The notes beneath the pieces were generated by a model that saw only the letters and a list, made by a program, of their open reading frames with translations, had not been told where the DNA came from and did not search any database. A stretch of DNA of 64,000 nucleotides, taken from positions 1,920,001-1,984,000 of the forward strand of contig OZ220480.1 in the NCBI GenBank assembly GCA_965116025.1. Direction: 5' to 3'. Position 1 is the first letter of the stretch. Each line of letters starts with the position of its first letter. Positions 19,031-36,685 of the stretch are shown here, in pieces. The translations under genes were made by a program, and so were the position numbers. The DNA comes from an uncultured candidatus Porisulfidus sp. (GTDB lineage: Bacteria; Pseudomonadota; Gammaproteobacteria; Poriferisulfidales; Poriferisulfidaceae).

Positions 19031-20770
19031 TCACGACCGGAACAGCCGATATTCGACCAACGCGGACTGGCCGATTATCTCGATGATCGTGACCGAGAGA
19101 TCTGTCCCATAAGAGTCAATCAGCCGCAACGGCTTGCCTAACCGAAACGGCACGGGCTGCCGCCGACCCTCGTCTATGGTGATATTGTCCACGTACAAAT
19201 ACGTGCGATCAAGCGAATCGCGTATTGGATTCAGCCTTCCTCGCAAGCCGGGTAGATTCCCGGAACCTTGAGCGAAAATAGTCGCGCCACCCGATTCGAG
19301 CGGCTCGAGATTAAGCGGCAATCTACCCCGGTCCGGGGTCCACTCCCGCTCAATCCCCGCGGCATACCCTAGCCCGGCGGCGTAGATCGTCATCGGCAAA
19401 TGCGTAGCGTATAGGTTCAGAGTCGCTTCACCAGACTCGTCAGTAACCGCCCGCACCCACGTCTTGTTGGGAAAGAGCGCGAGAACATCAATGCCTGCCA
19501 AAGGCTCGCCTCCAGAACGCGCCACGACTGTCGCGTCCGTCGAAACGAACTCCAATTGGGCGGAGGGAATGCGCAACATCAGATTCGATTCGTCGATCAC
19601 CTCATATACCGGTAGCGCACCGGTGGCTTCCCATGTTCGCTTGCGAATAATCTGCACGCCAGCACCTCGGCAATCCATCAGATATTTTCGATGCTCCGAC
19701 CTTGGCGCGTTGCCCACGGGAATGCGGCCGAACACGGAAGCGAGCGCTTCATTACGGGTTGCTTGGCTGAATTCCATGCCTTCAATAGTGATACCGTTCG
19801 GCAACCGCCCCGGCGAATCGATCTCCAGACGATCCTCGAACATGGACAGCCTAATTCGCCGCGATGATATGGAATAGTCGCGATGCACGACTGCGTTGAC
19901 GATAGCCTCGAAGACAGCGGTTTCGCTGTACTGCGGGATGTTTTCCCGCGCTGGCATCTTGCGCGCCGCGACTCGCATGTTGCGGACGACGAACCGCATG
20001 GCGTCCGCGATCTGGAGTGGCAACGGACCCACGATTTCCCGCGCGTCCAATTGCCCCGAAGCCCGATCCAGTCCGCGATAGCAGGTCGCCATGATGGTCG
20101 CTTGTGGCAACCAGTCCTGAGGCGAGGAAGAGCAAAGCAACACCCCGGCGACGGTCGCGCGTTCCACGCCAGCCTCATCCTGCGCCAGAAGGCGGAGATT
20201 CATCAGACCGTGCCGTGGATTGGTGGACTCATCCACACTGAGTAGCGACTCCCACAGTCGCTCACTGAGCGTCCCAAATCCAGTGTCGGGCACGATCTGC
20301 TTATCGAATCGCAGATAGCGGCTCTGCGCACGGTCTCGCGTTAACCTCAGGCACTCCTCCCTATGCAGGCGGCACTTGGTCGCGCCCACGCGGATGAACG
20401 CTCGCCCACTCCGCTCGTGAAGGGTCCCGCCGCGTGGCGCTTCAACAAGCAAAAACGCCTTGCCATCAAGCTCACGGTGGTAGGTATCAATGCGTAACGG
20501 TGGCTCTATGGCATCGGTACTCGCTTCCATCAAAAGGCGGTCAAGAGCTACCATCTGCTCCCGCGACATTCCCTGAATCGTTCCGTCATCAGCCACCCCA
20601 CATAGCATCACGCCACCGCTCGCGTTGGTGAAAGCACCCAGCTCATCCGCCAAATCGTCTAGATGTGGACTGGTCGGACTGTCGCCACTGAACTTGATTT
20701 GCTTGAATTCCCAGCGGCTGTCCTCACCCAAGCGAAGTTGTCGACGGATGTCGTCGTCTTGGATCATCAC
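19031..20770 (-). CDS. Schlafen/AlbA_2 domain protein with HATPase_c_4 (RecG-C-like) region and an unassigned beta-rich C-terminal domain
   Basis: GEDSRWEFK, AFTNASGGVMLCGVADDG; EAIVNAVVHRDY...DRLEIDSPG; start may be 20767-20803. Confidence 0.85.
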   Translation of the reverse strand: MMIQDDDIRRQLRLGEDSRWEFKQIKFSGDSPTSPHLDDLADELGAFTNASGGVMLCGVADDGTIQGMSREQMVALDRLLMEASTDAIEPPLRIDTYHRELDGKAFLLVEAPRGGTLHERSGRAFIRVGATKCRLHREECLRLTRDRAQSRYLRFDKQIVPDTGFGTLSERLWESLLSVDESTNPRHGLMNLRLLAQDEAGVERATVAGVLLCSSSPQDWLPQATIMATCYRGLDRASGQLDAREIVGPLPLQIADAMRFVVRNMRVAARKMPARENIPQYSETAVFEAIVNAVVHRDYSISSRRIRLSMFEDRLEIDSPGRLPNGITIEGMEFSQATRNEALASVFGRIPVGNAPRSEHRKYLMDCRGAGVQIIRKRTWEATGALPVYEVIDESNLMLRIPSAQLEFVSTDATVVARSGGEPLAGIDVLALFPNKTWVRAVTDESGEATLNLYATHLPMTIYAAGLGYAAGIEREWTPDRGRLPLNLEPLESGGATIFAQGSGNLPGLRGRLNPIRDSLDRTYLYVDNITIDEGRRQPVPFRLGKPLRLIDSYGTDLSVTIIEIIGQSALVEYRLFRS

Positions 20771-20875
20771 GCCACTACCCGGTGTGAAAGATTCATGTTG
20801 CAAGCGCGAGCCTCGCCGAACGAGAGATCGGGAAGGAGCGTCGTTCGGGAAAGGAAGCGAGATTTTTGCTGGTGC

Positions 20876-21636: not shown

Positions 21637-22245
21637 TCACGAATTCGTCCGTCTCATAGGCCTGCGTAGATCATACTCGCAGTTGGCACGGTTGCGAAAG
21701 GCGGCCTCAATCAGAAACTTGAGCGCTCCTCCCTGGTTTATTCTTTCCCATGGAGCAACCGAAATTTTGACATCCTGTTCCATAAAATTATCGATGATTC
21801 GGTCAGGCATATACGGATATCGACGCTCGTATTCCGCTCGCTCCTCGACGTGCATCCACTCATCAACATCCGGGTACAGCAGCTCCTTCTCTTCATTCCC
21901 ATGGGGCGCGTGGAAGCGGCCAGGAGATATTCCCGGAAGATTGATAACGACTATCCCCGACTTCTTATTCACCGAACCGTCGTACATGCTCGAGTGAATT
22001 TCCCAATCGACATGCTTTCGGCGTTTAGTCTCTCTGCCGACTAACACTATGGTCACGGTCGAGTCCTTGAGATATTCGTCACGAATAGCGCGGCGTATTC
22101 GCTCGTCGCTCCAATCACTCGGGATGTCGCCAGTGTCGACGGACCGATCTACAAAAACTGAATGCTCTTTTCCAAATTCGACCAGATCTTCCTTGTATTT
22201 CTGATCGTCGCGGTGATGGTAACTAATGAATACCTTATGCATCAT
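21637..22245 (-). CDS. ThsB-like TIR domain protein (MTH538/DUF1863)
   Basis: MHKVFISYHH...IRDEYLKDSTVTIVLVGRETKRRKHVDWEI (catalytic Glu present). Confidence 0.9.
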   Translation of the reverse strand: MMHKVFISYHHRDDQKYKEDLVEFGKEHSVFVDRSVDTGDIPSDWSDERIRRAIRDEYLKDSTVTIVLVGRETKRRKHVDWEIHSSMYDGSVNKKSGIVVINLPGISPGRFHAPHGNEEKELLYPDVDEWMHVEERAEYERRYPYMPDRIIDNFMEQDVKISVAPWERINQGGALKFLIEAAFRNRANCEYDLRRPMRRTNS

Positions 22246-23062
22246 GCCCTCCATTAGCAAGAGCGTTGCGTAGCCCCCGTGAAATGAGAGCCACGGCTTC
22301 CTGAATATGAGGAGTGCGGGCCAAAATAGCGTTCTCGTCGCGAGACAATCCGTTGTGCAGGTCGTCTGGCGAATATTTTTGGAAACGATCCCGACCAACC
22401 CATCCATTACGCGAACCGGCCCAGCGCTCGGCGATGCCAACTGTCTCCGCGATATCACGCGCGCACCCTCCGAATCCCCCTATGAGGAACACAGGCTGAC
22501 CTGCTTCAAGAGACAAATATGCCTCCTCGGCGATGCCGGGCATCACCCCTTTGTAGCCCTCGATTCTGCCGCCGAGCATGATTCGCGCCTGAATGTCCTC
22601 GCGCATGGTGGTTCGCATCGATGTAAGTCCTACCGTCCACTCATCTTCATCCGGCTCATGTGGTCGTAACGTCAGCCGTTGCTTTTGCGCGAGACGCGTA
22701 CCATCCAGCGCAAGGAAGACGATATGACTGCAGGGCTCATGTTCAGCAGAGGACGCGACAATCTCGTCCGGCGTCATGCGGATATGCACCGGCCAAGCCA
22801 AATAGTCAGTTACGGAGACTTCCCCACGATGTCGAGGATGATTCTGATAACGCCCCACCAACTCGGCTATAAGCTCCGTGAATCCATGTTGCTGCAGGTC
22901 TCCACCGTAGGCTAGGCTTCTTCCCGACGCGAGTATCTGGAGAGCGATCTCGGCCATCGCGTCATGCAGATGCCGGTCGCTCAACCCCAAGGACCACAAA
23001 TCCGGACTCTCTGAAACCGAGACCCCGACGGTATTCAATCTCTCGATATTTGGTGTGGTCAT
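22235..23062 (-). CDS. SLOG-superfamily protein (cluster-2-like)
   Basis: VGVSVSES...LAYGGDL...ARIMLGGRIEGYKGVMPGIAEEA...PVFLIGGFGGCA. Confidence 0.85.
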   Translation of the reverse strand: MTTPNIERLNTVGVSVSESPDLWSLGLSDRHLHDAMAEIALQILASGRSLAYGGDLQQHGFTELIAELVGRYQNHPRHRGEVSVTDYLAWPVHIRMTPDEIVASSAEHEPCSHIVFLALDGTRLAQKQRLTLRPHEPDEDEWTVGLTSMRTTMREDIQARIMLGGRIEGYKGVMPGIAEEAYLSLEAGQPVFLIGGFGGCARDIAETVGIAERWAGSRNGWVGRDRFQKYSPDDLHNGLSRDENAILARTPHIQEAVALISRGLRNALANGGHDA

Positions 23063-24225
23063 GAGCGTTTCTCCAGCCAATCCGCCAACGTCCTCACACG
23101 AACATCCGGCGCAATCTCTCTGAACAGCCGTTCTTCATCCGCGCTCAACAGTGGTTCAGGATAAACGATTGTCGGGGTCGACTCTCCATCGCAAGAAGGC
23201 AATGCCGCCAATGCGATCAACTCCGGGGGCCGGGCCGTAAACACAACCCCCGACGAATCCGCCAAATGGCATCCTACCTGACAGAGCCATAGCCATGTGC
23301 GGAAGACCTCGTCCAAGAGATAGCTCACAACGATGGAGATCTTGTCCATCTGGTCGGGGTCCATGCGTACGACCGGCACATTGCCGAGATAGGCCATTCC
23401 CCTTGGATCGATATCCCGCACACAATCGACCACGACCATCGGCACCAATCGTCGCTTCGCCTCAATAATCTCGCGCCGGCACCACTCGCGCGACGAGTAT
23501 GAAGCGGAATGCACCGCCACGACAGCCCCAGCATCAATCTGATGCAGAAGAACATCCCCGAATGGCAACCCCGGTGGAATGTCGTGGATGTCAAAGAAGC
23601 TATCGAGCGGGCTGTGTTCATAGATCCAGTCGCGAATGCGATTTCCCACCGATTCGCCATCTCCGTCATGTTTCGAGTGGCTAATAAAGACCTGTATCTT
23701 TTCCAAATATCTTTCATACGCCACACTTCCACCCTCGACGCTTTGATGCGCATCTATGCGATGTCGCAACATGCGACAAAATTCGTGGGTCAGTTCCAGC
23801 ATGAGACGCTGAGATCGCCCCATATCAGTTCCATCCCAGCAATTCCAACGCAGAGCTTGTTGCTCAAAATTTGCTTCGACACCCCGGTCATCCATCGTCA
23901 CGGGGAAGAAGCCAGCGGGAATGCCTTTATCGCGCGCATCCCGCGCGATCCCATGCACATATTCAACCCAAGCTGGATCATCAACAAGCGTCGCTTCCGT
24001 CAAAACAACGACAGCGGTGAGATCCGCATCGTTCCAATTGATCGATGAAGGAGTGCGCTCGTCCTGAATCGGCACGCTAAGTCCGAAGACGTTGATACCA
24101 TGCGGCGCGCCAATGGACATGCTGGAATCGCGTCCAAAGCGTTCGTGAAATTGCTTCGCGATTTCACGGCCTCCCGTGTACGAGGGATGCCATATCACGT
24201 ACAACGAGAAGAGTGGGCGCGCCAT
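23059..24225 (-). CDS. Long TIR-domain protein
   Basis: VFISHSKHDG...FFDIHDIPPG...SYSSREWCRREIIEAK; ATGA overlap with the SLOG gene. Confidence 0.88.
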   Translation of the reverse strand: MARPLFSLYVIWHPSYTGGREIAKQFHERFGRDSSMSIGAPHGINVFGLSVPIQDERTPSSINWNDADLTAVVVLTEATLVDDPAWVEYVHGIARDARDKGIPAGFFPVTMDDRGVEANFEQQALRWNCWDGTDMGRSQRLMLELTHEFCRMLRHRIDAHQSVEGGSVAYERYLEKIQVFISHSKHDGDGESVGNRIRDWIYEHSPLDSFFDIHDIPPGLPFGDVLLHQIDAGAVVAVHSASYSSREWCRREIIEAKRRLVPMVVVDCVRDIDPRGMAYLGNVPVVRMDPDQMDKISIVVSYLLDEVFRTWLWLCQVGCHLADSSGVVFTARPPELIALAALPSCDGESTPTIVYPEPLLSADEERLFREIAPDVRVRTLADWLEKRS

Positions 24226-24591
24226 TGATTCTTTGGTCCGCCGAATCAATGTCTCGACAGATCTCCCGGCAAGCGATGTTTCCCGGCATCAGAGTTAGGA
24301 AGCGAAAAACCATCACCTCCGCTATAGTCTTGGTCGGTCGAGCACAACCACACGAAGCAAATCTCCTTCCACCGTCGATCCATAATCACCACAACGCCTC
24401 ATATTCAGATGCCAAACCGTGCGCCCATTATAAAGTGTCCGCCTATCGACGGTCTCTTTCGACGATATTGAAGAGCAGGGAATTATGTAGGTAACTTGAC
24501 AAGACGGATTGTAATCCACCTACTACTTGACAAGAGATGTAATGAACATATGATATATCGTAACTTGAATATGAAAGTTATGGAGAGAGCG

Positions 24592-25524
24592 ATGTCGAGG
24601 AGAATCGCGAAGACCCTCGGGCTGTTCGACCTGATGAAGATGTATCCGACTGAGACGGACGCCGTTCGATACCTGGAATCCCTCCGATGGGGCGAGAAGC
24701 CGCGTTGCGTCCATTGCGGCGCGACCGACAAGATCACCGCCCAGAAGAAAGCGGGCGATTACTGGTGCGGCTGGTGTCGCCACTACTTCACGGTGCGATC
24801 CGACACCCCGCTGGAGCGATGCAAGATCGACCTGCGCAAGTTCATCTACGCGGCCTATCTGCTGATGACCTCCCGCAAGGGGATCAGTAGCCTGCAGCTG
24901 AGCAAGGAGCTGTCCGTGCAGCAGCGCACCGCCTGGTATATCCTGCATCGTCTGCGCGTGGCCTGCGGCGGCAAGCTGGAGCCCCTGCGCGGGACCGTGG
25001 AGGTGGACGAGGTCTATCTCGGAGGGCGGGAAGCCAACAAGCACGAGAGCCGGAAGGCGCATGGCGGGCATTTCGCCGAGAAGCAGATCGTGCTGGGGAT
25101 GCGCGAGCGAGGCGGGCGCGCGGTCGCCTTGCCGATCGAGCGCGCCGACAAGCCCACCCTGCAAGGGGCCGTCCACCGGCATGTCCAGCCGGGAACCACG
25201 ATCTGCACGGACGAGAACCCCTCCTACCATGGCGTCGCTCGCCGGCATCGCGCAGTGAACCACAGCGCGAAGGAATACGTCAATGGCATGGCGCATACGA
25301 ACGGGATCGAATCGGTCTGGGCGGTGCTCAAGCGCGGCTTCGACGGCGTCTACCACAACTGGTCGAGAAAGCATTGCCGCCAATACGTCAACGAGTTCAT
25401 GTTCCGTCTCAACGAGGGGAACTGCGAGCGCGACACCCAGGACCGCCTGGACGATCTGTTCCGGGCCATGATGGGCAAGACGATCACGTACGAGGATCTC
25501 ACCGCGTCCGGGGAAGGCTGGTAG
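24592..25524 (+). CDS. IS1595-family (ISXO2-like) DDE transposase
   Basis: CVHC/CGWC zinc ribbon, GISSLQLSKEL, VEVDEVYLGG, TDE, HTNGIESVW; RBS GGAG upstream. Confidence 0.95.
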   Translation: MSRRIAKTLGLFDLMKMYPTETDAVRYLESLRWGEKPRCVHCGATDKITAQKKAGDYWCGWCRHYFTVRSDTPLERCKIDLRKFIYAAYLLMTSRKGISSLQLSKELSVQQRTAWYILHRLRVACGGKLEPLRGTVEVDEVYLGGREANKHESRKAHGGHFAEKQIVLGMRERGGRAVALPIERADKPTLQGAVHRHVQPGTTICTDENPSYHGVARRHRAVNHSAKEYVNGMAHTNGIESVWAVLKRGFDGVYHNWSRKHCRQYVNEFMFRLNEGNCERDTQDRLDDLFRAMMGKTITYEDLTASGEGW

Positions 25525-25810: not shown

Positions 25811-28800
25811 ATGAGCGAGCAAACCCCGATACGTCCTGGACAGATTTTGGTCGGCATCCTGTTTAACCAGCCGATGCGAGTCGAGACCGTGCATGCGAAT
25901 GGAGCTAACTCTTGGAGTGTGGGTCTGGTCGGTACGCATACGGGACAATTTCGTCGCGTTGTCCTTACCGATGATGCCATCAAGAAGATATCCATCATTG
26001 ATGGATCCAACCACTCATACGATGGCGATGGCCACGTTCTTCGGCTCGGCTTGAAAGCTTGCGCGCTCGGGATCGCCCATGAATTTGATCCTTATTTCGG
26101 CCTTTCGATATCCCGAGTGGATCCACTCCCGCATCAACTCGAAGCAGTCTACGAACACATGCTCAAACTGTCTACAGTTCGGTTTCTGCTTGCCGACGAT
26201 GCTGGTGCAGGCAAGACGATTATGGCGGGTCTACTGGTGCGCGAGCTCAGATTACGTGGACTCGCGGAACGCATTCTAATCGTCTGCCCCGCAAACCTAA
26301 CGTTCCAATGGCAACGTGAACTGAGCGAGAAATTCGACGAGAAGTTCCTCGTGCTCAAAGGTGGAGACATCCGTGATCAATTTGGTGTCAACCAGTGGTT
26401 GGAGCAACAGCGTATCATCACTTCGCTCGACCTCGCAAAACGTACCGATATCCTTCCCGGACTACAGCAAGTGCATTGGGATCTCGTCATCGTTGATGAA
26501 GCGCATCGCATGTCTTGGTCGCCACCAGCCAGAAAGACGGCGCGCTATTCGCTCGGCGAGTTGCTACGCGACAGCACCGACCACATCCTTCTACTAACCG
26601 CCACGCCACACAAAGGCGACCCGGAGAATTTTGCGCGGTTCTTGCAGCTCATCGACCGTGACGCTTATGCTGATGTCAAGTCGATTCATGAGGCCATAAA
26701 CCATCGTCGGGCGCCATTCTACCTACGGCGCACCAAAGAGGCGATGTTCTACTTTCCAGAGCGCCAAACCGACGGCGAATGGAAGGCGCGCCCAGTGTTC
26801 ACGAAGCGCATCCCCCGCACAGTCGGATTCATGATTGATGAGGATGAATGGGAACTGTATTTAGAGATCACCCGATTCGTGAAGCGGCAGAGTGCAAATG
26901 CTGCCGCCCAAAGAGACGATCCTCGCGCACGAGCTGTCGGTTTCCTGATGGTGCTCTACCAAAGACGCCTTGCCTCCAGTGTTTTCGCGATGCGGCACTC
27001 GCTTGAGAACCGGGCCAAACGCCTTGAAAAAAGATTGCAGCGCGCTCAGTTTGTGGCAAAGAACGCACCACCAAGCCTTCCCGATCCTGAGGAGATCGAT
27101 GAGATGGAAGATGATGAGCGGGAACGCTTTGAAGAACTGCTTGATGCGGTCACTTTAGCCGATAACGCCGAGCAAGTGCGCGACGAAATTTTGGAACTGA
27201 GACAGTTTGCGGACAGAGCCAAGGCGATCGAAAACTCTGGCAAGGAGGCGAAGCTCACCAAGCTCAAAGACATACTACAGAGTGAAGGCTTCTTCGACCT
27301 TCCCGGTCAACGCTTGCTCCTGTTCACCGAATTTAAGGATACGCTCAACTGCCTTGTAGACCATCTCAAAACTTGGGGATTTACGGTCGGCTATATTCAC
27401 GGCGGCATGAAGCCTGGTTCGCGTGACGAGCCGGGCACTCGGCTTCACGCGGAACAGCAGTTCCGGGAAGGAAAAACCCAAGTATTGGTCGCCACAGAGG
27501 CGGCAGGCGAAGGTATTAATCTGCAGTGTTGCCATATTCTCTTCAACTACGATATCCCATGGAATCCAAACCGGCTTGAACAGCGCATGGGCCGGATCCA
27601 CCGGTACGGGCAAAATCATGACTGCCTAATCTTCAACTTCGTCGCGACCAATACTATCGAAGGGCGTGTCCTCAAACGTCTGATGGACAAGCTTCAGGAA
27701 ATCAGGGACGCGCTGGATGACGACGTGGTATTCAACGTGATTGGTGAAATCCTGCCCGCCACGCAAATCGAACGTGTATTGCGAGACTACTATGCGGGCA
27801 GGCTGGATGAGGCCAATTTGGAAAACCACATGCTGGAGGGCGTAGACGAAGATCGTTTCCGGGCCATTTGCCAGACCGCGCTCGAAGGCCTCGCATCAAA
27901 GAAGCTTAACCTCGAGATGCTCATCGAGCGACGCGCCAAAGCAAGAGAGCAACGCGTCGTACCGGAGAGCATCGCCCGGTTCATGGTAGATTGCGCCAAG
28001 GATGCGTCGCTGGCCCTCAAATCTGTGCCGAAGCTTGCCCATACGTTCGACCCTGGGCGAACACCGCCCGTCCTGAAGAAACACGAACGAGGCGCGGACT
28101 GGAAGCTCCCACAAATCGCGGCGCGCTATCCCCGTTTGTCGACGGACCGTGAAACGGCAGATCAAAACCATCTGGAATGGATCACACCCGGTCACCCTCT
28201 GTTCGAAGCGTTACGCCTCCACGCTCTTGAAACTGCAAAAAACGTCTTTACTCAAGGGGCATGCTTCCACTCTCTGGCCCATGAGGCACCGACGCGACTC
28301 GACGTATACCGGGCGAAAGTCGTAGACGGATTGGGGCATACTGTTCATGAGCGGCTTTTCGCCGTTGAGTTGCGCGAAGACGGCGAACCGCAACGACGAG
28401 AACCCGGACTGCTTAGCGATCTCACCCCCGCTGCTCCACCAGATAATATCCCATCCGTAGCACATCTTCCAGAGGCCACCGATTGGCTTATGGAAACCAT
28501 GTTGGAACCATTCCTTGAAAAGGTTCAGTCGGAACGTTCGGCTGAGATCGAACGTATCACCAAGCATGTGGAACTGTCGCTTACCGAGGTACTGCAGCGG
28601 ATCGACGTAGAGATTGGCCACGCCGCCGAAGAGGCGAAAAAAGGAAGTGCCGGAGCCAAGGGTCGTCTCACCCAAGCAGAAGCACGTCACGGCGAAGTAC
28701 TGGAGCGGCGCAACCGCCGCAACGAGGAGCTTGAACGGGAGCAAAACGTAACGCTGCAGGAAGTCGAAAGACTAACAAGTTTGCTGATCCTACCTCACCC

Positions 28801-29215
28801 CGAGCGCAGCGCTCCCGAAGTCAAGCGATTGCGGCCAAACCCCGAAACTGAGATGAAGGCGATGCGCGTCGTCATGGACCATGAAAACGCGCGAGGATGC
28901 CAAGTCTACGATGTGCACGAGAAAAATCTTGGTTACGACGTGACGAGCCTCGACCTGCAGTCTGGCGAGCTACGCCTGATCGAGGTGAAAGGGCTTGCCG
29001 CAACAACCGGCAATATCCTGCTTACTCCGAACGAGTTTCGAGTGGCCGAGGACCGCCGAGATTGCTACTGGCTCTATATCGTGACCGGTTGCGCGAGTGC
29101 CCTGAAGCTCAAACTTATCAAGAACCCTGCCCGTCTTCAATGGCGCGACATAACTAAGGTGCAACACTACTGGCTTGCAGTCGACACGTTGCATGCTACT
29201 GGAAGTGACCAGTGA
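25811..29215 (+). CDS. SNF2-family helicase with C-terminal DUF3883 (PD-(D/E)xK-like) nuclease
   Basis: LLADDAGAGKT, DEAH, LLTATPH, QRMGRIHRYGQ; GYDVTS...RLIEVKG. Confidence 0.93.
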   Translation: MSEQTPIRPGQILVGILFNQPMRVETVHANGANSWSVGLVGTHTGQFRRVVLTDDAIKKISIIDGSNHSYDGDGHVLRLGLKACALGIAHEFDPYFGLSISRVDPLPHQLEAVYEHMLKLSTVRFLLADDAGAGKTIMAGLLVRELRLRGLAERILIVCPANLTFQWQRELSEKFDEKFLVLKGGDIRDQFGVNQWLEQQRIITSLDLAKRTDILPGLQQVHWDLVIVDEAHRMSWSPPARKTARYSLGELLRDSTDHILLLTATPHKGDPENFARFLQLIDRDAYADVKSIHEAINHRRAPFYLRRTKEAMFYFPERQTDGEWKARPVFTKRIPRTVGFMIDEDEWELYLEITRFVKRQSANAAAQRDDPRARAVGFLMVLYQRRLASSVFAMRHSLENRAKRLEKRLQRAQFVAKNAPPSLPDPEEIDEMEDDERERFEELLDAVTLADNAEQVRDEILELRQFADRAKAIENSGKEAKLTKLKDILQSEGFFDLPGQRLLLFTEFKDTLNCLVDHLKTWGFTVGYIHGGMKPGSRDEPGTRLHAEQQFREGKTQVLVATEAAGEGINLQCCHILFNYDIPWNPNRLEQRMGRIHRYGQNHDCLIFNFVATNTIEGRVLKRLMDKLQEIRDALDDDVVFNVIGEILPATQIERVLRDYYAGRLDEANLENHMLEGVDEDRFRAICQTALEGLASKKLNLEMLIERRAKAREQRVVPESIARFMVDCAKDASLALKSVPKLAHTFDPGRTPPVLKKHERGADWKLPQIAARYPRLSTDRETADQNHLEWITPGHPLFEALRLHALETAKNVFTQGACFHSLAHEAPTRLDVYRAKVVDGLGHTVHERLFAVELREDGEPQRREPGLLSDLTPAAPPDNIPSVAHLPEATDWLMETMLEPFLEKVQSERSAEIERITKHVELSLTEVLQRIDVEIGHAAEEAKKGSAGAKGRLTQAEARHGEVLERRNRRNEELEREQNVTLQEVERLTSLLILPHPERSAPEVKRLRPNPETEMKAMRVVMDHENARGCQVYDVHEKNLGYDVTSLDLQSGELRLIEVKGLAATTGNILLTPNEFRVAEDRRDCYWLYIVTGCASALKLKLIKNPARLQWRDITKVQHYWLAVDTLHATGSDQ

Positions 29216-29598
29216 CTCAAAAGATTAAACATCTGGAACTCATTCAATGCGTGATCAATCGTCTTGCCGCCAACTCGTTCCGCATCAAAGGATGGGCCGT
29301 CATCCTTGTTTCGGCACTTCTCGTTCTGCTCGTCCGGGAAGGCCGGACCGATCTCGCCTGGATCGGTCTCGTCCCGGTATTCGTCTTCTGGGGGCTCGAC
29401 GGCTACTTCTTGTGGCAGGAGAGATCATTCCGTAGCCTTTATGACCATGTCCGTGTGTTACAAGACGACCATGTAGATTTCTCTATGGACACATCGGCGT
29501 TTCGCCAATTCTGGCTCAATACGGTATTTTCAGTCACCCTATGGCCCTTTTACGTTGCATTGGCCATTTCGATCTCAGCCGCTCTCTTGCTCAAATAA
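29212..29598 (+). CDS. Small ~3-TM membrane protein, putative TIR-linked effector
   Basis: KIKHLELIQCVINRLAANSFRIKGW...FWGLDGYFLWQERSFRSLYDHVR; three hydrophobic segments; GTGA overlap with the helicase stop. Confidence 0.8.
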   Translation: MTQKIKHLELIQCVINRLAANSFRIKGWAVILVSALLVLLVREGRTDLAWIGLVPVFVFWGLDGYFLWQERSFRSLYDHVRVLQDDHVDFSMDTSAFRQFWLNTVFSVTLWPFYVALAISISAALLLK

Positions 29599-29621
29599 TC
29601 AATTACATGGAGACACCTAAG

Positions 29622-30119
29622 ATGAAGCGAAAAGTGTTTTACAGTTTTCACTACGAAAAAGATAGTTGGCGTGCAGCTATGGTGCGTAACATCGGAGCTA
29701 TAGACGGAAATGCGCCAGCCACCGACAACGATTGGGAATCAGTAAAGAAAGGAGGAGATTGGGCGATCAAGAGATGGATCGCAAAACAGATGGAAGGCCG
29801 AACATGCTGCGTCGTCCTAGTGGGGACACATACCGCCAATCGCAAGTGGATCAATCACGAAATCATCAAATCGTGGAACAAAGGCATGGGGCTGGTTGGA
29901 ATACATATTCACGGTTTGAAGGACTGTGACGGGTGCGCATCATCAAGAGGGAGTAATCCATTTGACTTTATCACTTACAGAGATCAGTGCCGAACTTTGT
30001 CGTCCACCGCGAAGTGCTACGACCCACCAGGCAGGAATAGCCGCGAACGCTATGACTGGATCGCTATGCACATATCAAACGCAGTTGAGGAGGCCATTCG
30101 GATTCGTAATGCATGGTAA
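29622..30119 (+). CDS. ThsB-like TIR domain protein (MTH538/DUF1863)
   Basis: MKRKVFYSFHYEKDSWRA...VVLVGTHTANRKWINHEIIKSW; GGAG upstream. Confidence 0.92.
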   Translation: MKRKVFYSFHYEKDSWRAAMVRNIGAIDGNAPATDNDWESVKKGGDWAIKRWIAKQMEGRTCCVVLVGTHTANRKWINHEIIKSWNKGMGLVGIHIHGLKDCDGCASSRGSNPFDFITYRDQCRTLSSTAKCYDPPGRNSRERYDWIAMHISNAVEEAIRIRNAW

Positions 30120-30152
30120 TCTCGCCGTCCTGTCATCTGGCGAAATGTGCAG

Positions 30153-33100
30153 ATGATTCCCCAGCAGTGCAAGCGCCTAGCGGAGGTGGACTTCCCGATC
30201 GCTGCAGTATCGCGCCATGCGGCACGCGAAAAATCTATTCGCCACGGCCACCCATCGACGTTACATCTCTGGTGGGCACGACGACCACTCGCCTCGTCAC
30301 GGGCAGTACTACTGGGGCTTTTACTACCCGACCCCTGCGACCCTCATTGTCCAGAGGCATTCAAGAAAGAAGCACGTAAAATATTACCAACGGTTGGATG
30401 TCGGCGTGTGAAATCTGACCAAGCCATACGCTATAGCCTTCTGAAATTCATCGCCGACTTCGCTAACTGGGATAACAGCGCAGAACAGATTTATCTTGAT
30501 GCGGGCCGGTCTCTTGTAAGAGCCGCTCATGGGCAGGCTCCACCATTGGTAGTTGATCCGTTTGCGGGAGGTGGATCAATCCCCCTAGAAGCATTGCGGC
30601 TTGGTTGCGATGCGTTCGCAAGTGACCTCAATCCGGTAGCCTGTCTAATTCTCAAGGTTATGTTGGAGGATATCCCGCGTCATGGTCCGGATCTAGCCAA
30701 TGATCTGTGTGCGATAGGTGCTGAAATCAAACAGCAAGCCAAACAGGAGTTGTCAGATCTCTACCCCAATGATACGGACGGTGCAACCCCGATAGCATAT
30801 CTCTGGGCGCGCACGGTAAGTTGCGAAGCACCGGATTGCGGTGCTGAGATTCCGCTGATGCGTTCGTTCTGGCTGTGCAGGAAGACAAAACGTAAGCGAG
30901 CACTACGATTTTCCATCAAACGAAATAAAGGTACTCCACCCCAAGTGACGTTTGATGTGTTCGAACCCAAGACCGATGGCGACGTACATGCAGGCACCGT
31001 GACTCGCGCCAAAGCAACATGCTTGTGTTGCGGCACAGTCCTACCACCTGAACGGGTACGCACGCAGCTCGCTACCGAGCGCGGTGGTGCAGATGTGATT
31101 TTCGATGAGGAAGGCAAACGTATCGGTGGAGCACGAATGACAGCAGTAGTGACGCTTCGACCACACGAAGCGGGCCGCCATTACCGCTTACCGACAGATG
31201 CGGACTATGCAGCAGTGCGTAAGGCGCAAGCACGAGTCGCAAAAATACTGGGAAAGTGGGAGCGTGGTGGTAGGCAGGGGCTATGCCCAGTGCCAAATGA
31301 ACCTTTACCACCAATCGGGACACTAGGATTTCGAGTTCAGCGCTACGGCATGCTCAAGTGGGGCGATCTGTTTACCGCACGGCAGAAGATTGCACTGGTG
31401 GAACTGACAAATCTAATTCGACAGGCTGGTAGCAAATCCGAAATTGGACTTATCTCTGCCGCAATCAGCCGATGTGCAACCCACTGGTCGTCTGGAACAA
31501 TGTGGATACAGGACCTCGAAGCTGTAGCAAATATATTTGGCCGACAAGCATTACCTATCGTTTGGGATTTTGCAGAAGCATGCGGTTTCGGCGACGGTGG
31601 AGCGACTTTAGATGGACAAGTTAGCTGGATTGCCAAAGTGGCGGGGCAACTTCCCATTCGAAAAGCAGCAAACATACAAGCTTCAGATGCCGCTGACTAC
31701 CCACTCCCGGATCAAAGCGCAACTATCTGGTTTACGGATCCACCTTATTACGATGCCGTTCCGTATGCCGACTTATCCGATTTTTTTATGGTTTGGCTAA
31801 AGCGCGGTCTGCCCAATCACCCTCTCTTGCGTGACCCCTACGATCCAAACAACCCTCTTACGCCCAAGGACCGTGAAGCAGTACAGGACGAAACAAAGAA
31901 AAATGATGGTCGCTCCAAAGATCGTTCATGGTTCGAGGAAACTATGGCGAAAGCGTTCACCGAGGGAAGGCGCGTTCTTACCAAGGATGGTGTTGGTTCT
32001 GTCGTATTCGCCCACAAGACCACCGAAGGATGGGAAGCACTGCTCTCGGGCATGATCCAAGGCGGCTGGACCATCACAGGTTCTTGGCCAATTGCGACCG
32101 AACGAGCTGCCCGAATGCGTGCCCATGACTCGGCTGCCCTCGCTACCAGTATCCACCTCATTTGCCGCCCGCGCTCGAGTGATGCTCTAGTCGGTGAATG
32201 GGCTGAAGTGCTTCGCGAACTTCCCTTACGGGTTTCCAAATGGATGGATCGACTTCAAGGGGAAGGTGTTCGTGGAGCAGACCTTGTCTTCGCATGTATC
32301 GGGCCTGCAATTGAGATTTTCAGTCGCTACCAGACTGTCGAGACCGCGGACGGTCGGAGTGTCGGCCTCCCAGAATATTTAGAGAAAGTCTGGGAAGTCG
32401 TAGGGCGTGCAGCACTTGAACAAGTGCTTGGCGTGACTGAAGCTACCGCCCGCAGCGGCATGGCTGGCGCGCTGGAGGAAGATGCTCGCTTGACCGCCTT
32501 GTTTCTATGGACTCTCCAGAGTACTGAAGAATTTCGAATGGGGAATGATCGAGAGGGTTCCGTTGCCAGCCATCCAGCGGTAACCGAAAATGCTACGCCT
32601 AAGGAGTTAGATGGAAAAGATGAAGAAGCCGTCACCAAAGCAACAATGAAAGGGTTTCACCTTCCCTTTGACGTAGTACGGCGTTTCTCTCAACCCATGG
32701 GCATTGATCTCGAACGTTGGACCGGAAGGATTATTAGCCAAGAAAAAGGCATTGTGTGGTTGCTTCCGATCACGGAACGGGTGAAATCACTCTTCGGAGA
32801 CGAAGGTTCCGCAAGTGTTGCCGAATGGGTCGATAACCACCCGGCCGACGATACGCAAGCGGTCCTCTTTCCCGACCTTGATATACCTGCCTCGCCGGGA
32901 CATCAACCAAGCAGAAATGCACAAGATACCGACCCTATTCTGCAATCATCTGATGCCACAATACTTGACCGAATCCACGCTGCCATGTTGTTGCAAGTAG
33001 GCGGTTATGCAAATGCCTTGCGGACGTTGATCTTCCAAGAACAGGAACGAGGACCAGATTTCTTGCATCTCGCAAACGCGCTTTCCGCGCTCTACCCACG

Positions 33101-33155
33101 CGGTAGCCGCGAGAAAAGAATCTTGGATGCCATGCTTCTAGCCGTACCAAAGTGA
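30153..33155 (+). CDS. DUF1156 amino-DNA methyltransferase with Zn ribbon
   Basis: STLHLWWARRPLA, DPFAGGGSIPLEA, CEAPDC/CLCC, TDPPYYD. Confidence 0.93.
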   Translation: MIPQQCKRLAEVDFPIAAVSRHAAREKSIRHGHPSTLHLWWARRPLASSRAVLLGLLLPDPCDPHCPEAFKKEARKILPTVGCRRVKSDQAIRYSLLKFIADFANWDNSAEQIYLDAGRSLVRAAHGQAPPLVVDPFAGGGSIPLEALRLGCDAFASDLNPVACLILKVMLEDIPRHGPDLANDLCAIGAEIKQQAKQELSDLYPNDTDGATPIAYLWARTVSCEAPDCGAEIPLMRSFWLCRKTKRKRALRFSIKRNKGTPPQVTFDVFEPKTDGDVHAGTVTRAKATCLCCGTVLPPERVRTQLATERGGADVIFDEEGKRIGGARMTAVVTLRPHEAGRHYRLPTDADYAAVRKAQARVAKILGKWERGGRQGLCPVPNEPLPPIGTLGFRVQRYGMLKWGDLFTARQKIALVELTNLIRQAGSKSEIGLISAAISRCATHWSSGTMWIQDLEAVANIFGRQALPIVWDFAEACGFGDGGATLDGQVSWIAKVAGQLPIRKAANIQASDAADYPLPDQSATIWFTDPPYYDAVPYADLSDFFMVWLKRGLPNHPLLRDPYDPNNPLTPKDREAVQDETKKNDGRSKDRSWFEETMAKAFTEGRRVLTKDGVGSVVFAHKTTEGWEALLSGMIQGGWTITGSWPIATERAARMRAHDSAALATSIHLICRPRSSDALVGEWAEVLRELPLRVSKWMDRLQGEGVRGADLVFACIGPAIEIFSRYQTVETADGRSVGLPEYLEKVWEVVGRAALEQVLGVTEATARSGMAGALEEDARLTALFLWTLQSTEEFRMGNDREGSVASHPAVTENATPKELDGKDEEAVTKATMKGFHLPFDVVRRFSQPMGIDLERWTGRIISQEKGIVWLLPITERVKSLFGDEGSASVAEWVDNHPADDTQAVLFPDLDIPASPGHQPSRNAQDTDPILQSSDATILDRIHAAMLLQVGGYANALRTLIFQEQERGPDFLHLANALSALYPRGSREKRILDAMLLAVPK

Positions 33156-33292
33156 CATCATGGAATCGAAAGCACGTCCGAAGGACAGAAAATCCTTGAA
33201 TCTCTCTGGCTGGCAAGTCTTCCCTCGAACTAGCCATTTTCCGCTACAGGTTTTACAATCTCACTCACGTTTTGAAACGCAAGGAGAACAAC

Positions 33293-33550
33293 ATGACGGA
33301 AGAAACCGAACTGCTGAGGCGAATCACTGTCCGGCCCGATATCTTTGGCGGCAAGCCGATCATACGCAATATGCGAATCGCGGTGGAACATGTCTTGGCC
33401 AATCTAGCGGCAGGAGAAACGGTTGAGGACCTGCTAGAAAACTATCCATTCCTTGAGCAGGAAGATATCCAAGCATGCTTGCTCTTCGCTCACCGCTCAT
33501 TAGCTGGAGAACATGTACATGACCGCATCATCGATCAAAGAACTTCGTGA
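33293..33550 (+). CDS. DUF433 antitoxin (VapB45-like)
   Basis: ITVRPDIFGGKPIIRNMRIAV...DLLENYPFLEQEDIQACL; AAGGAG RBS. Confidence 0.92.
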   Translation: MTEETELLRRITVRPDIFGGKPIIRNMRIAVEHVLANLAAGETVEDLLENYPFLEQEDIQACLLFAHRSLAGEHVHDRIIDQRTS

Positions 33551-33924
33551 AATTTCTCCTCGATATTTGCGCCACATCGCAAGTACTACGTTCATGCTTG
33601 GTAGAACTTGGGCATGATGTCTTATCCGCACGAGACTGTTTTTCCCATGCATCAGACGAAGCGTTACTGGAATTCGCCTGCAGGGAAAGTCATGTGCTCA
33701 TTACCGAGGACAAGGATTTCGGTGAGCTTGTCTTTCTGCATGGCTTGCCTCATCCATCTATTGTGCGGCTTGTCGGGATGACTCCGACAGAAAGGGCGGA
33801 TGCTATGCGAAATCTGATTGAGTGCCATGCGGATGCCATACGCAAGAGCTCAATAATCGTGGTGACCAGAAAATGCGTGCGGATACGGTCGGCAAGAAAC
33901 CTTGGGAGCGTCAACAATGGCTAG
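33547..33924 (+). CDS. DUF5615 PIN-like toxin (VapC45-like)
   Basis: MKFLLD...GHDV...SDEALL...VLITEDKDFGEL; GTGA overlap with the antitoxin. Confidence 0.9.
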   Translation: MKFLLDICATSQVLRSCLVELGHDVLSARDCFSHASDEALLEFACRESHVLITEDKDFGELVFLHGLPHPSIVRLVGMTPTERADAMRNLIECHADAIRKSSIIVVTRKCVRIRSARNLGSVNNG

Positions 33925-36685
33925 GAGCCCTTGGTACAAAGTCGTTACGCCGCGATCAGAAGTGCGGGAAGGTCGCTCATTCAGCCCAGACGAGTTCGCG
34001 ATTGCCCTTGAGCAGGTGGTCGCGGGAACCGCCCCCTTGGATTACCGTGACCCTGCGCAATTCTTCTCGCGAACATGTTTTACTCGCGCCTTCAAGGAAC
34101 ATGCTGGTATGGTGCTTCGCCGTCTTGCAGGCGAGACGCAAAACACGTCCCCGGTGCTTACCCTCGTTACCCAGTTTGGCGGAGGAAAGACCCACACGCT
34201 CACTGCGCTCCACCATCTCGCCAATGCCGGCTCACGGGCCAAAAGCCTGCCCGGCGTATCTGATCTCCTGGCTGAAGCGGGAATCTCCAAGCCACCTGAT
34301 GCGCGAGTTGGTGTCTTCGTAGGTAATGCGTGGGACCCCACCGAAGGGCGTGAAACACCATGGATTGACCTAGCCTACCAAATAGCTGGTAACAGAGGTG
34401 TCGCCGCGCTTGGATCGACCGCAAAAACAACTCCACCTGGAACCGAGTCGCTCGCCCGGGTCTTCGCTGCCGTGGATGCTCCCGTACTGCTGCTGTTTGA
34501 CGAGGTTCTGAACTTCGTTAACCGGCATCGGGACAAGGCTGAAAGCTTCCATGCCTTCATACAGAACCTGGCGGTCGCCGTCACCGGAACCACTGAGACG
34601 GTCACCGTCATAAGCCTGCCACGAAGTCAGGTGGAGATGACCGATTGGGATCAGCAATGGCAAGATCGGATCACAAAAGTAGTGAGGCGCGTCGCGCGTG
34701 ACCTCATCGCCAACGATGAAGCCGAAATTGGCGATGTCGTTCGCCGGCGCCTGTTTGAGAACCTCGGCGATGAGAAAATTCGAAAACAAGTCTCAAAAAT
34801 CTATGCTGATTGGTGTTTTGAACGAACTGCTCGGCTTCCCTCTGAATGGATGGCGACCGACAGTGCCCCGCCGGAAACCAAAGCGCGGGAGTTTCTGATG
34901 GGCCGTTTCGAAGCTTGCTATCCTTTCCATCCCTCGACTCTCTCAGTTTTCCGAAGAAAATGGAGTGCGCTCGCGCAATTCCAGCAAACCCGTGGTACGC
35001 TTGCGATGCTTGCCCAATGGGTATCTTGGGCCGCACGCCAACAATTTCAGCAAGCCCGAACGGAACAGCTGATCACGCTCGGGTCGGCACCACTGCATGT
35101 GCCCGAGTTTCGCGCTGTCGTGCTTGGGCAACTAGGTGAGCAACGGTTGGATGTGGCCATAGCCGCCGACCTAGCGAGTCCCACGGCGCATGCCCGAGCT
35201 CTAGATATCGATACTCGGGGACCAATCAGGGACATACATCAGCGGGTGGGAGCGGCCATTCTCTTCGAGTCTTCTGGAGGACAAGTAGACAAAGTGGCTC
35301 ACTTGCCCGAACTGCGTTTCGCCCTTGGTGAACCCGAAATCGAAACCACAACCATTGATAACGCTGCGGGGGCATTAGAAGCATCAGGGTTCTTCATCCG
35401 CAAAGTCGGAACGGATGGTTTCCGCATCCACCATCAAGCGACCTTGAAAAAAGTTGTTAACGACCGTCGTGCCACGCTTGACGAAGAAACAGAAATTCGG
35501 CCTGTAATTCGTAAATTAGTGGAAGAGGAATTCACCCGAGGTGCCAATCTTCCGGTTATACCCTTCCCTGATGACGGCGCAACTATCCAAGATGCGCCAC
35601 GTCTGATACTGGTCCTCGTCGACCCAGAAGCGGAATGGGAACTCGGTGGGAAAACAGCAAAAAAAATCGAACGATGGACCAAAGAGAGAGGAACTTCGCC
35701 AAGGCTGCATCCTGCGTCCTTGGTCTGGTGTGCCAAAAAACCAGGGCGGGAACTCAAGAATCGCGTCGAGATGTGGCTTGCTTGGCGACGAGTCTCTTTG
35801 GATGTCGCGGAAGGTGTGCTCGGGACGGAATTTGGTCGCGCTGATCAAAACGAATTGCAGTCCAAAGTCAGAGATGCCGAAAATGCCGCGAGAGACGAAG
35901 TATGGGCCAGCTATCGATTCGTCGCTCTCGCCGATGCCAGAGCCGAATCCGGACTTAAAATGATTGATCTTGGAGCCGGGCATAGTAGCGCGAGTGAAAC
36001 ACTCTGCGGAAGGGTGTTAACCGCGCTCAAGACCGAAGCCCTGCTAAGTGAAACCATCGGTGCTGGTTACCTCGACCGGCATTGGCCACCAGCATTCAAG
36101 GAGACCGGCGCTTGGCCACTAACCAGCCTGCGGCAAAGCTTTCTCAACGGCTCCCTGACTCGGCTCATTGATCCCGATACCGCCCTGCGGCAAAAGATCG
36201 TTGAATTCGTCGAGAAAGGAGATTTTGGGCTCGCTTCGGGAACACTGGCAAGCAGCCAATACGAACATCTATGGTACATGGAGCCAGTCGAGGCTGAGGA
36301 GGTCGCTTTCGAGAAAAATGTCTTCCTGTTAACCAAAGCACGAAGCGAGGAATTGCGAATGCCAGTAGCACCAGAGCCAAAGCCATATTCTGTAACGCCA
36401 CCACCGTCCACACCTGATCCTGGCAGCGTGGATGAATTCGAATCAGAGACTAACATGTCTGATGAGCCTGTTCAATTACGTGTGCATGGAACCATACCCC
36501 CAGAACTGTGGAATCGCCTCGGCACAACGGTCATTCCAAAACTCCGCTCCGGTGATGAGCTGAAAACGCAAGTAGAAGTCAGCGTCAAAGTTGCCGCGCC
36601 CATGGCGGCAGCCTTACAGACGGATATCCAGCAAACCCTGACCGAGTTAAATCTTGATGGCCAAGTAAGTGTTGAGTGCTCTTGA
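33917..36685 (+). CDS. DUF499 AAA+ ATPase
   Basis: FFSRTCFT, TQFGGGKTH Walker A, LLLFDEV Walker B, YPFHP, FQQTRG. Confidence 0.92.
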   Translation: MARSPWYKVVTPRSEVREGRSFSPDEFAIALEQVVAGTAPLDYRDPAQFFSRTCFTRAFKEHAGMVLRRLAGETQNTSPVLTLVTQFGGGKTHTLTALHHLANAGSRAKSLPGVSDLLAEAGISKPPDARVGVFVGNAWDPTEGRETPWIDLAYQIAGNRGVAALGSTAKTTPPGTESLARVFAAVDAPVLLLFDEVLNFVNRHRDKAESFHAFIQNLAVAVTGTTETVTVISLPRSQVEMTDWDQQWQDRITKVVRRVARDLIANDEAEIGDVVRRRLFENLGDEKIRKQVSKIYADWCFERTARLPSEWMATDSAPPETKAREFLMGRFEACYPFHPSTLSVFRRKWSALAQFQQTRGTLAMLAQWVSWAARQQFQQARTEQLITLGSAPLHVPEFRAVVLGQLGEQRLDVAIAADLASPTAHARALDIDTRGPIRDIHQRVGAAILFESSGGQVDKVAHLPELRFALGEPEIETTTIDNAAGALEASGFFIRKVGTDGFRIHHQATLKKVVNDRRATLDEETEIRPVIRKLVEEEFTRGANLPVIPFPDDGATIQDAPRLILVLVDPEAEWELGGKTAKKIERWTKERGTSPRLHPASLVWCAKKPGRELKNRVEMWLAWRRVSLDVAEGVLGTEFGRADQNELQSKVRDAENAARDEVWASYRFVALADARAESGLKMIDLGAGHSSASETLCGRVLTALKTEALLSETIGAGYLDRHWPPAFKETGAWPLTSLRQSFLNGSLTRLIDPDTALRQKIVEFVEKGDFGLASGTLASSQYEHLWYMEPVEAEEVAFEKNVFLLTKARSEELRMPVAPEPKPYSVTPPPSTPDPGSVDEFESETNMSDEPVQLRVHGTIPPELWNRLGTTVIPKLRSGDELKTQVEVSVKVAAPMAAALQTDIQQTLTELNLDGQVSVECS

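Follow-up and report, generated by a model that had tools for sequence, protein, structure and literature searches.

A two-gene cassette encoding a small membrane protein and a ThsB-type TIR protein was analysed in a 64,000-nucleotide (nt) stretch of DNA, hereafter the window, from an uncultured candidatus Porisulfidus sp. (contig OZ220480.1, positions 1,920,001 to 1,984,000). The cassette is embedded in a complete Hma operon on the plus strand of the window (25811-36685), for which the PADLOC HmaA, HmaB and HmaC models were all matched. The operon opens with hmaA (25811..29215), encoding an 1134-amino-acid (aa) helicase with SNF2-rel_dom, Helicase_C and a C-terminal NOV_C domain of the DUF3883 type in Pfam (PADLOC HmaA, 2.2e-178). 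It continues after the cassette with hmaB (30147..33155), encoding a 1002-aa DUF1156 DNA methyltransferase (PADLOC HmaB, 5e-113; Pfam DUF1156, 1.5e-22), and hmaC (33902..36685), encoding a 927-aa DUF499 ATPase whose start codon is uncertain (PADLOC HmaC, 3.4e-90; Pfam DUF499, 4.3e-15). These three genes constitute the host system and lie outside the TIR-membrane cassette. The interval between hmaA and hmaB holds exactly two genes, the membrane gene (29212..29598, 128 aa) and then the TIR gene (29622..30119, 165 aa), both on the plus strand and separated by 23 nt. The GTG start of the membrane gene lies within CCAGTGACT and forms a 4-base GTGA overlap with the TGA stop of the helicase gene. No promoter or terminator signal was detected above chance around the cassette, which suggests that transcription probably continues into it from hmaA and that it is co-transcribed with the Hma operon. 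An initial annotation, made from the letters of the sequence, had described a 128-aa gene with about three transmembrane (TM) segments coupled by GTGA to the stop of an SNF2-DUF3883 helicase, followed by a DUF1863 TIR with a glutamate in a WINHEI motif, in a helicase-methylase-ATPase setting that includes a DUF1156 methylase. The first element was borne out by hydropathy and AlphaFold2, the second by Pfam and alignment with Bacillus cereus ThsB, and the third by Pfam and PADLOC, which identify the setting as Hma.

The 128-aa open reading frame (ORF) is a real gene, since 1166 homologues were found at E≤1e-3 among proteins of similar length in a search of 90 %-identity clusters, and the family has 4987 representatives in a 50 %-identity cluster library. 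Homologues begin at the same residue as the window protein (MxxKxKHLE), which supports the GTG start at 29212. Hydropathy analysis gave three hydrophobic segments (residues ~27-42, 48-67 and 105-127). The AlphaFold2 model, with a mean predicted local distance difference test score of 86.7, contains helices at residues 3-42, 46-82, 101-105 and 111-127. An amphipathic N-terminal helix runs into TM1, which forms a hairpin with TM2; a conserved polar helix comes next, and a DFSMD loop then leads to TM3. Two residues, D63 and E70, are invariant across 69 diverse family members, and H7, Q12, R17, K26, R74 and Y77 are nearly so. No Pfam or NCBIfam family was found for the protein, with no Pfam match even at E≤10 in 27 family members, and a profile search of PDB sequences returned no match at E≤10. 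The Foldseek comparison suggested in the initial annotation was also uninformative: the AlphaFold2 model had no structural relative in the PDB at E≤0.001, and the top rows, the hairpins of ESCRT-III and Vipp1 at E of about 1, were rejected as generic helical hairpins. Two further candidates were discarded, namely the hits of a wide VIA-align search, whose best Z score of 9.2 falls in a range that is uninformative for helical proteins, and the nearest named ESM Atlas cluster, 'RipA family octameric membrane protein' (PF24838), whose score of 0.85 was sub-threshold and had no backing from Pfam or NCBIfam.

The membrane-protein family extends across many bacterial phyla and was also found on haloarchaeal plasmids, in 126 plasmid records (39 from Klebsiella and 34 from Escherichia) and in three Vibrio phage records. 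The closest relatives of the window gene often came from genomes of uncultured Binatia, Latescibacterota, Poribacteria, Vicinamibacterales, Entotheonella and Azotimanducaceae, and several genomes carry two copies (for example, loci L005 and L046, L010 and L042, and L039 and L044). The genome from which the window derives, a single contig of 2.02 Mb, contains a second, distant paralogue of 138 aa (C1:91907-92287; locus L082, 1483-1899; E 7e-16 to the family profile). This paralogue is followed by an 85-aa truncated ThsB-like ORF, with a TIR-like ORF on the opposite strand and fragments of transposases or insertion sequences around it. The second copy appears to be a decayed module.

The TIR protein was assigned to PF08937 (ThsB_TIR, formerly DUF1863; Pfam, 1.6e-27) and matched the PADLOC ThsB model at 1.2e-65. 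Translation probably begins at ATG 29622, because a GGAGA lies upstream with a 7-nt spacer and homologues among the partner TIRs open with MKRRVFYSFHY; an in-frame ATG is also present at 29607. A match to the B. cereus ThsB structures (PDB 6LHY/9B7D) was obtained at E 3.6e-23. The glutamate of the WINHEI motif (E80 when counted from ATG 29622, E85 from ATG 29607) aligned with the glutamate of the WVRYEI motif of B. cereus ThsB, which we take to be the catalytic E85, and was invariant in 30 of 30 aligned partner TIRs. The feature by which a Thoeris system is recognized, a ThsB-type TIR with an aligned putative catalytic glutamate, is thus present in the window. The closest solved structure is chain A of PDB entry 8WCF (160 aa, E 2.5e-36), deposited as 'Molecular chaperone Tir'; no mention of this entry was found in the literature searched.

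Both proteins have counterparts in PADLOC. The membrane protein matched the PDC-M50A model (PDLC04686) at 2.3e-44 over residues 3-121 of 128, and the TIR protein matched the PDC-M50B model (PDLC04688) at 2e-62. The window pair is an instance of the PADLOC candidate PDC-M50 and does not differ from it in composition. The PDC candidates were placed in PADLOC without testing by Payne, Hughes, Fineran and Jackson (bioRxiv 10.1101/2024.01.29.577857) and, like that set, the window pair sits within another defence system, in this case Hma. No function, signal or mechanism was found to have been published for PDC-M50, and the string 'PDC-M50' did not occur in the literature searched. The pair has therefore been catalogued already and has not been characterized: the PADLOC comparison proposed with the initial annotation gave a match to a candidate system and none to a characterized one. 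The novelty that the annotation had implied is weakened by this listing and by the validated type V Thoeris system considered below.

Linkage between the membrane and TIR genes was surveyed in both directions. The forward survey, with one genome per species, covered the best 80 of 534 confirmed membrane-homologue loci, and TIRs were called with a hidden Markov model (HMM) built from the partner TIRs. Many of these genome loci come from long-read metagenome assemblies, and some of the TIR genes are frameshifted. The reverse survey covered the best 80 of 538 metagenome loci with TIRs 51-68 % identical to the window TIR, of which eight were cut by contig ends near the TIR, leaving 72 evaluable. 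In the forward direction, a ThsB-type TIR was located directly downstream on the same strand in 54 of 80 loci and nearby in three more, with none detected by the HMM in the other 23. Among the HMM-negative loci, L010, L030 and L047 have TIRs of other types directly downstream and L062 is cut by a contig end. In L025 and L026, a TIR lies beyond one intervening ATPase gene. Locus L004, which is counted within the 54 by the HMM, had no TIR by tblastn and has an NsnB/PDC-M55A-like ATPase nearby. In the reverse direction, a membrane gene was found within about 1 kb of the TIR in 44 of the 72 evaluable loci (22 directly upstream, seven upstream with a gap of 300-1100 nt, 12 directly downstream and three adjacent on the opposite strand), and no membrane gene was found in the examined flanks of the remaining 28. 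In both of the gap operons that were inspected (L096 and L113), a single membrane gene precedes two TIR genes that differ from each other; likewise, one effector is accompanied by several thsB genes in classical Thoeris operons. The association between TIR and membrane protein is conserved, and the TIR linkage of membrane-gene homologues on which the initial annotation depended was upheld.

The neighbours of orphan membrane genes were diverse and included an HEC-03 ATPase (L043), PDC-M28 (L028 and L035), a cyclase of the cyclic oligonucleotide-based antiphage signalling system (CBASS) with its own 2TM effector (L070), an HMUDK-like gene (L005) and genes of unknown type. In L028 (6431-8346) and L035 (6466-9337), the membrane gene is directly upstream of PDC-M28, a ParA-like ATPase with partners, and in L035 it occupies the position that PDC-M28A has in L028. 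A link to CBASS, considered for the cyclase beside the membrane gene in L070, was rejected in view of the 2TM effector that this CBASS itself possesses and of a TnpB gene that separates the context.

The reverse loci without a membrane gene were informative as to the alternative partners of these TIRs. In 16 of the 28, the TIR adjoins a canonical ThsA (SIR2_2 plus STALD SLOG, 1e-26 to 1e-78); one of these loci, L148, is cut by a contig end and retains SIR2_2 alone (6.7e-13). Loci L084, L117 and L125, also without a membrane gene, encode TIR_2 proteins together with genes of SLOG cluster 2 or 3. A maximum-likelihood tree was reconstructed for 69 TIRs (68 from metagenome loci plus that of the window; 12 loci that were short or cut were omitted). 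The 45 membrane-linked and 16 ThsA-linked rows intermingle on this tree, with at least eight changes of partner, and clades with Shimodaira-Hasegawa-like approximate likelihood ratio test values of 97-99 contain both partner states. This indicates that ThsA and the membrane protein are alternative partners of closely related TIRs, as would be expected if effectors were swapped under one signal.

Domain fusions were also detected. Fusion protein P0197 (378 aa) consists of a SLOG-cluster2 domain (residues 10-198, 1.7e-15) and a C-terminal membrane module (residues 245-374) with 40 % identity to the window membrane protein (E 1e-33). Such SLOG-membrane fusions form eight 90 %-identity clusters with a coverage of P0197 of 95 % or more. 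In ThsA, the signal is sensed by the SLOG domain, which suggests that the membrane module of these fusions is in the output position. A fusion of TM and TIR parts was represented by one cluster, P0133 (286 aa, four member sequences, longest contig 988 nt), the only one kept among six longer homologues; P0130 and P0131 were rejected as fusions, as their garbled middle parts look like frameshift artefacts.

The pair was then compared with the named Thoeris types. A total of 29 putative types have been annotated and types V to XI have been validated (Yirmiya et al., bioRxiv 10.64898/2025.12.03.692087). Type V combines ThsB with a three-helix membrane effector, ThsF (PF10028, DUF2270), and is triggered by 3' cyclic ADP-ribose (3'cADPR), with toxicity upon this trigger demonstrated for one ThsF system; its TIRs belong to a cluster common to types I and IV, and membership entails the three membrane helices, ring-shaped homo-oligomer and basic pockets of ThsF (Yirmiya et al.). 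Type V is the closest validated analogue of the window pair. Both are two-gene operons of a ThsB TIR and a small 3-TM effector, both TIR groups are linked to type I, and ThsF has a similar order of elements, with an amphipathic N-terminal helix, a TM1-TM2 hairpin, a basic segment after TM2, and TM3. However, the window effector has 128 aa compared with 184 positions in the DUF2270 model. The PF10028 HMM had no match in the genome of the window, nor in 27 family members at E≤10, and hhalign of the membrane family against the DUF2270 alignment gave probabilities of 2.2 % and 5.9 %. Membership of the membrane protein in DUF2270/ThsF was rejected at the level of sequence, as homology was not detected by HMM or by profile-profile comparison, although a remote structural relationship may exist.

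Similarity to type I resides in the TIR, a PF08937 ThsB with its glutamate aligned to that of B. cereus ThsB and with close relatives beside ThsA in the 16 loci above. In contrast to type I, the cassette contains no SIR2 or STALD SLOG protein and has the membrane protein in the effector position; neither SIR2_2 nor STALD was found in the 23 window ORFs scanned (17.2-43.2 kb). As the membrane protein replaces ThsA, cell death would come from membrane damage and not from NAD+ depletion. Types II (ThsB with 2TM-Macro) and VII (ThsB with SLATT) resemble the window pair in combining a TIR with a membrane-spanning effector, and these effectors are thought to form pores upon ligand binding (Yirmiya et al.). 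However, Pfam detected no Macro or SLATT domain in the membrane protein, no SLATT was found at E≤10 among the 27 members, and the window TIR clade is tied to type I partners rather than to the His-ADPR or cADPR clusters described in the preprint. The membrane family may be among the 18 putative effectors that the preprint gives as unverified (Yirmiya et al.).

Gene neighbourhood and domain fusions support a Thoeris-like system, and it is considered fairly likely that the TIR senses infection and makes a signal derived from ADP-ribose while the membrane protein is the cell-killing effector. Defence function, signal, oligomerization and membrane damage are predictions from sequence, and the Thoeris-like pair with a membrane effector that the initial annotation had proposed retains its conditional status with this added support. 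In such a scheme, the cassette would be a self-contained Thoeris-like abortive-infection module (PDC-M50) inserted into the Hma operon. The TIR, acting as both phage sensor and signal synthase, would recognize a phage cue and convert NAD+, in a glutamate-dependent manner, into an ADP-ribose-derived signal. This signal would most likely be 3'cADPR (1''-3' glyco-cyclic ADP-ribose, gcADPR), since TIRs of this clade also serve canonical ThsA; within the Thoeris-like scheme the choice of 3'cADPR is a tentative one. The membrane protein, as a homo-oligomer, would bind the signal at a conserved cytosolic face composed of the N-terminal helix (H7, Q12, R17 and K26) and the segment after TM2 (D63, E70, R74 and Y77). 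Signal binding would open or disrupt the inner membrane, and the infected cell would be stopped before phage release. Direct binding of the ligand by the membrane protein is suggested by the conserved polar residues on the predicted cytosolic face and by the precedent of ThsF.

Several points weigh against this scheme. Both surveys lean to close relatives, because the best 80 of more than 530 matches were taken in each. In the forward survey, 23 of 80 loci had no adjacent TIR by the ThsB HMM, and about 19 intact membrane genes are solitary or stand by unrelated systems. These orphans may be remnants, or the membrane protein may be able to function independently of a TIR signal. The membrane protein contains no recognizable ligand-binding domain, with only about 60 residues being cytosolic, and the presence of a separate SLOG domain in the fusions means that the membrane module may not bind the signal itself. 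Fusions and orphan genes together caution that activation may need another input. PDC-M50 is a candidate system only, and its name is absent from the literature searched. Yirmiya et al. also caution that, where a TIR pair is unverified, the effector may be the TIR, acting by NAD+ depletion.

This last caveat leads to the alternative that survives best, although it is considered unlikely: the TIR would be the NAD+-depleting effector, and the membrane protein would be a sensor, anchor or inhibitor that, for example, detects membrane perturbation or DNA injection and then releases or activates the TIR. Many bacterial TIRs act as NADase effectors, but the window TIR is from a clade in repeated alternation with ThsBs linked to ThsA, and those ThsBs produce the signal in type I Thoeris; the window TIR also has only 165 aa and no extra sensor domain for an input. 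The tight operon, with an intergenic gap of 8-30 nt in most loci, would fit a complex and the TM-TIR fusion cluster P0133 would fit physical coupling of the two proteins, whereas the two distinct TIRs that accompany a single membrane gene in L096 and in L113 represent a sensor-like multiplicity. The membrane protein has no known signal-binding domain, in keeping with this alternative; in the SLOG-membrane fusions, however, the related module is in the place of an effector.

A second alternative involves the genes upstream of the Hma operon. A cluster of three genes on the minus strand (21637-24249), ~5 kb upstream of the cassette, encodes a 273-aa ThsB_TIR protein (21637-22458; Pfam), a 281-aa SLOG cluster2 protein (22235-23080; Pfam LD_cluster2, 2.9e-68; no PADLOC match) and a 396-aa TIR_2 protein (23059-24249; Pfam). 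It is followed, between the cluster and hmaA, by a plus-strand IS1595-family transposase gene (24496-25524). Further upstream, a minus-strand gene (19031-20803) encodes a 590-aa protein with Schlafen AlbA_2 and HATPase_c_4 domains and weak PADLOC matches to pAgo-associated models. Type III Thoeris consists of several TIRs and a SLOG effector, as quoted by Yirmiya et al., and the arrangement of the TIR-SLOG-TIR cluster fits a type III Thoeris-like system. The statement in the initial annotation that no such ThsA is present holds for the SIR2-SLOG and TM-Macro forms of ThsA, but this cluster qualifies it.

The SLOG-cluster2 gene of this cluster stands 6 kb upstream of the membrane gene, and its product, a free-standing SLOG protein, could in principle form with the membrane protein a split version of the SLOG-membrane fusion, such that the three TIRs of the island feed one effector via SLOG. 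The two window proteins do correspond to the two halves of P0197, the SLOG protein matching its SLOG half with 31 % identity (E 1e-12) in an alignment that stops at the fusion junction (RGLR) and the membrane protein matching the other half as described above; the SLOG protein also has no Pfam domain besides SLOG. The closest relative locus, L001, retains both genes, but the membrane gene has a SLOG-cluster2 gene in its vicinity in just two of 80 genome loci and three of 80 metagenome loci, so that SLOG-cluster2 is not a regular partner. In the window, the SLOG gene belongs to its own TIR-SLOG-TIR cluster on the other strand, with the IS1595 transposase in between, and that arrangement fits type III Thoeris, which has been described separately (Yirmiya et al.). 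A split fusion is therefore regarded as highly improbable.

The relationship of the cassette to its host operon was assessed from the distribution of both across the forward loci. A full-length HmaA homologue (68-79 % identity) was present just upstream in 12 of 80 loci and a partial one in two, with none at that level in 66. Among the Hma-embedded copies, TIR identity to the window TIR ranged from 45 % to 74 % (L019, L022 and L032 versus L003 and L018). A TIR gene was directly upstream of the membrane gene in all three records that were opened, from a Klebsiella plasmid, the Priestia megaterium plasmid NZ_CP069403.1 and a Vibrio phage. The G+C content (GC) was 0.47-0.62 over ~18.6-37.2 kb of the window compared with 0.66-0.71 in the core genes on either side, which are mutL upstream and genes for a TsaD-family protein and a helicase downstream; the difference suggests horizontal acquisition of the island. 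The lowest bin of all, 0.468 at 29400-29999, coincides with the cassette, and the contrast with the hma genes (0.51-0.57) suggests a separate origin.

Embedded genes are common in Hma systems, having been reported in 931 of 1485 (62.7 %) and being of many unrelated kinds, and the embedded candidates that were tested, HEC-01 to HEC-09, comprise systems of the ATPase, GmrSD-like or RNase kind (Payne et al., bioRxiv 10.1101/2024.01.29.577857). The window Hma likewise carries embedded genes, although none of the nine tested candidates is a TIR-membrane pair. A second, unrelated embedded cassette occupies the interval between hmaB and hmaC (33272..33924, plus strand), where overlapping genes encode a 92-aa DUF433 protein (33272-33550; Pfam, 7.5e-24) and a 125-aa DUF5615/PIN-like protein (33547-33924; Pfam, 1.4e-16). 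This pair looks like a toxin-antitoxin system and had no PADLOC match.

These observations indicate that the TIR-membrane cassette is an autonomous, mobile two-gene module nested in Hma. The least probable alternative, that it is a functional part of Hma, either as an accessory required by Hma or as a back-up or guard set off by phage inhibition of Hma, agrees with the GTGA overlap that couples the membrane gene translationally to hmaA, with the lack of an above-chance promoter or terminator between the genes and with the same embedding behind full-length HmaA in 12 loci, but is opposed by the 66 loci without HmaA at that level, the occurrence of the pair on plasmids and in phage without Hma, the variation in TIR subtype among Hma-embedded copies, the frequency of unrelated embedded genes in Hma systems and the lower GC of the cassette. 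The guarding role suggested for the cassette in the initial annotation is not supported, on these grounds and in view of the second cassette in the same operon. Annotations should treat the cassette as an independent system that is nested within Hma, not as one of the parts of Hma.

A more far-reaching interpretation of the Thoeris-like module is possible and is advanced with caution. The 128-aa protein would represent a new and very abundant family of Thoeris effectors (~5000 clusters at 50 % identity, no Pfam entry), unrelated to ThsF, SLATT or Macro-TM proteins and among the smallest receptor-effectors known. At an oligomer interface it would directly bind the signal made by the TIR (probably 3'cADPR) and gate a lethal membrane pore, SLOG sensors would employ this module as their output domain, and the pair would constitute a new type of Thoeris that may be about as common as those already named. 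Because closely related TIRs have repeatedly switched between the membrane protein and ThsA, the signal can be predicted, and reporter assays that already exist could test this hypothesis directly. If correct, a large unnamed family of ~130-aa membrane proteins would become a class of Thoeris effectors, a larger share of genomes would be known to use TIR signalling, and the family would provide a minimal model for the gating of a membrane protein by a small nucleotide signal.

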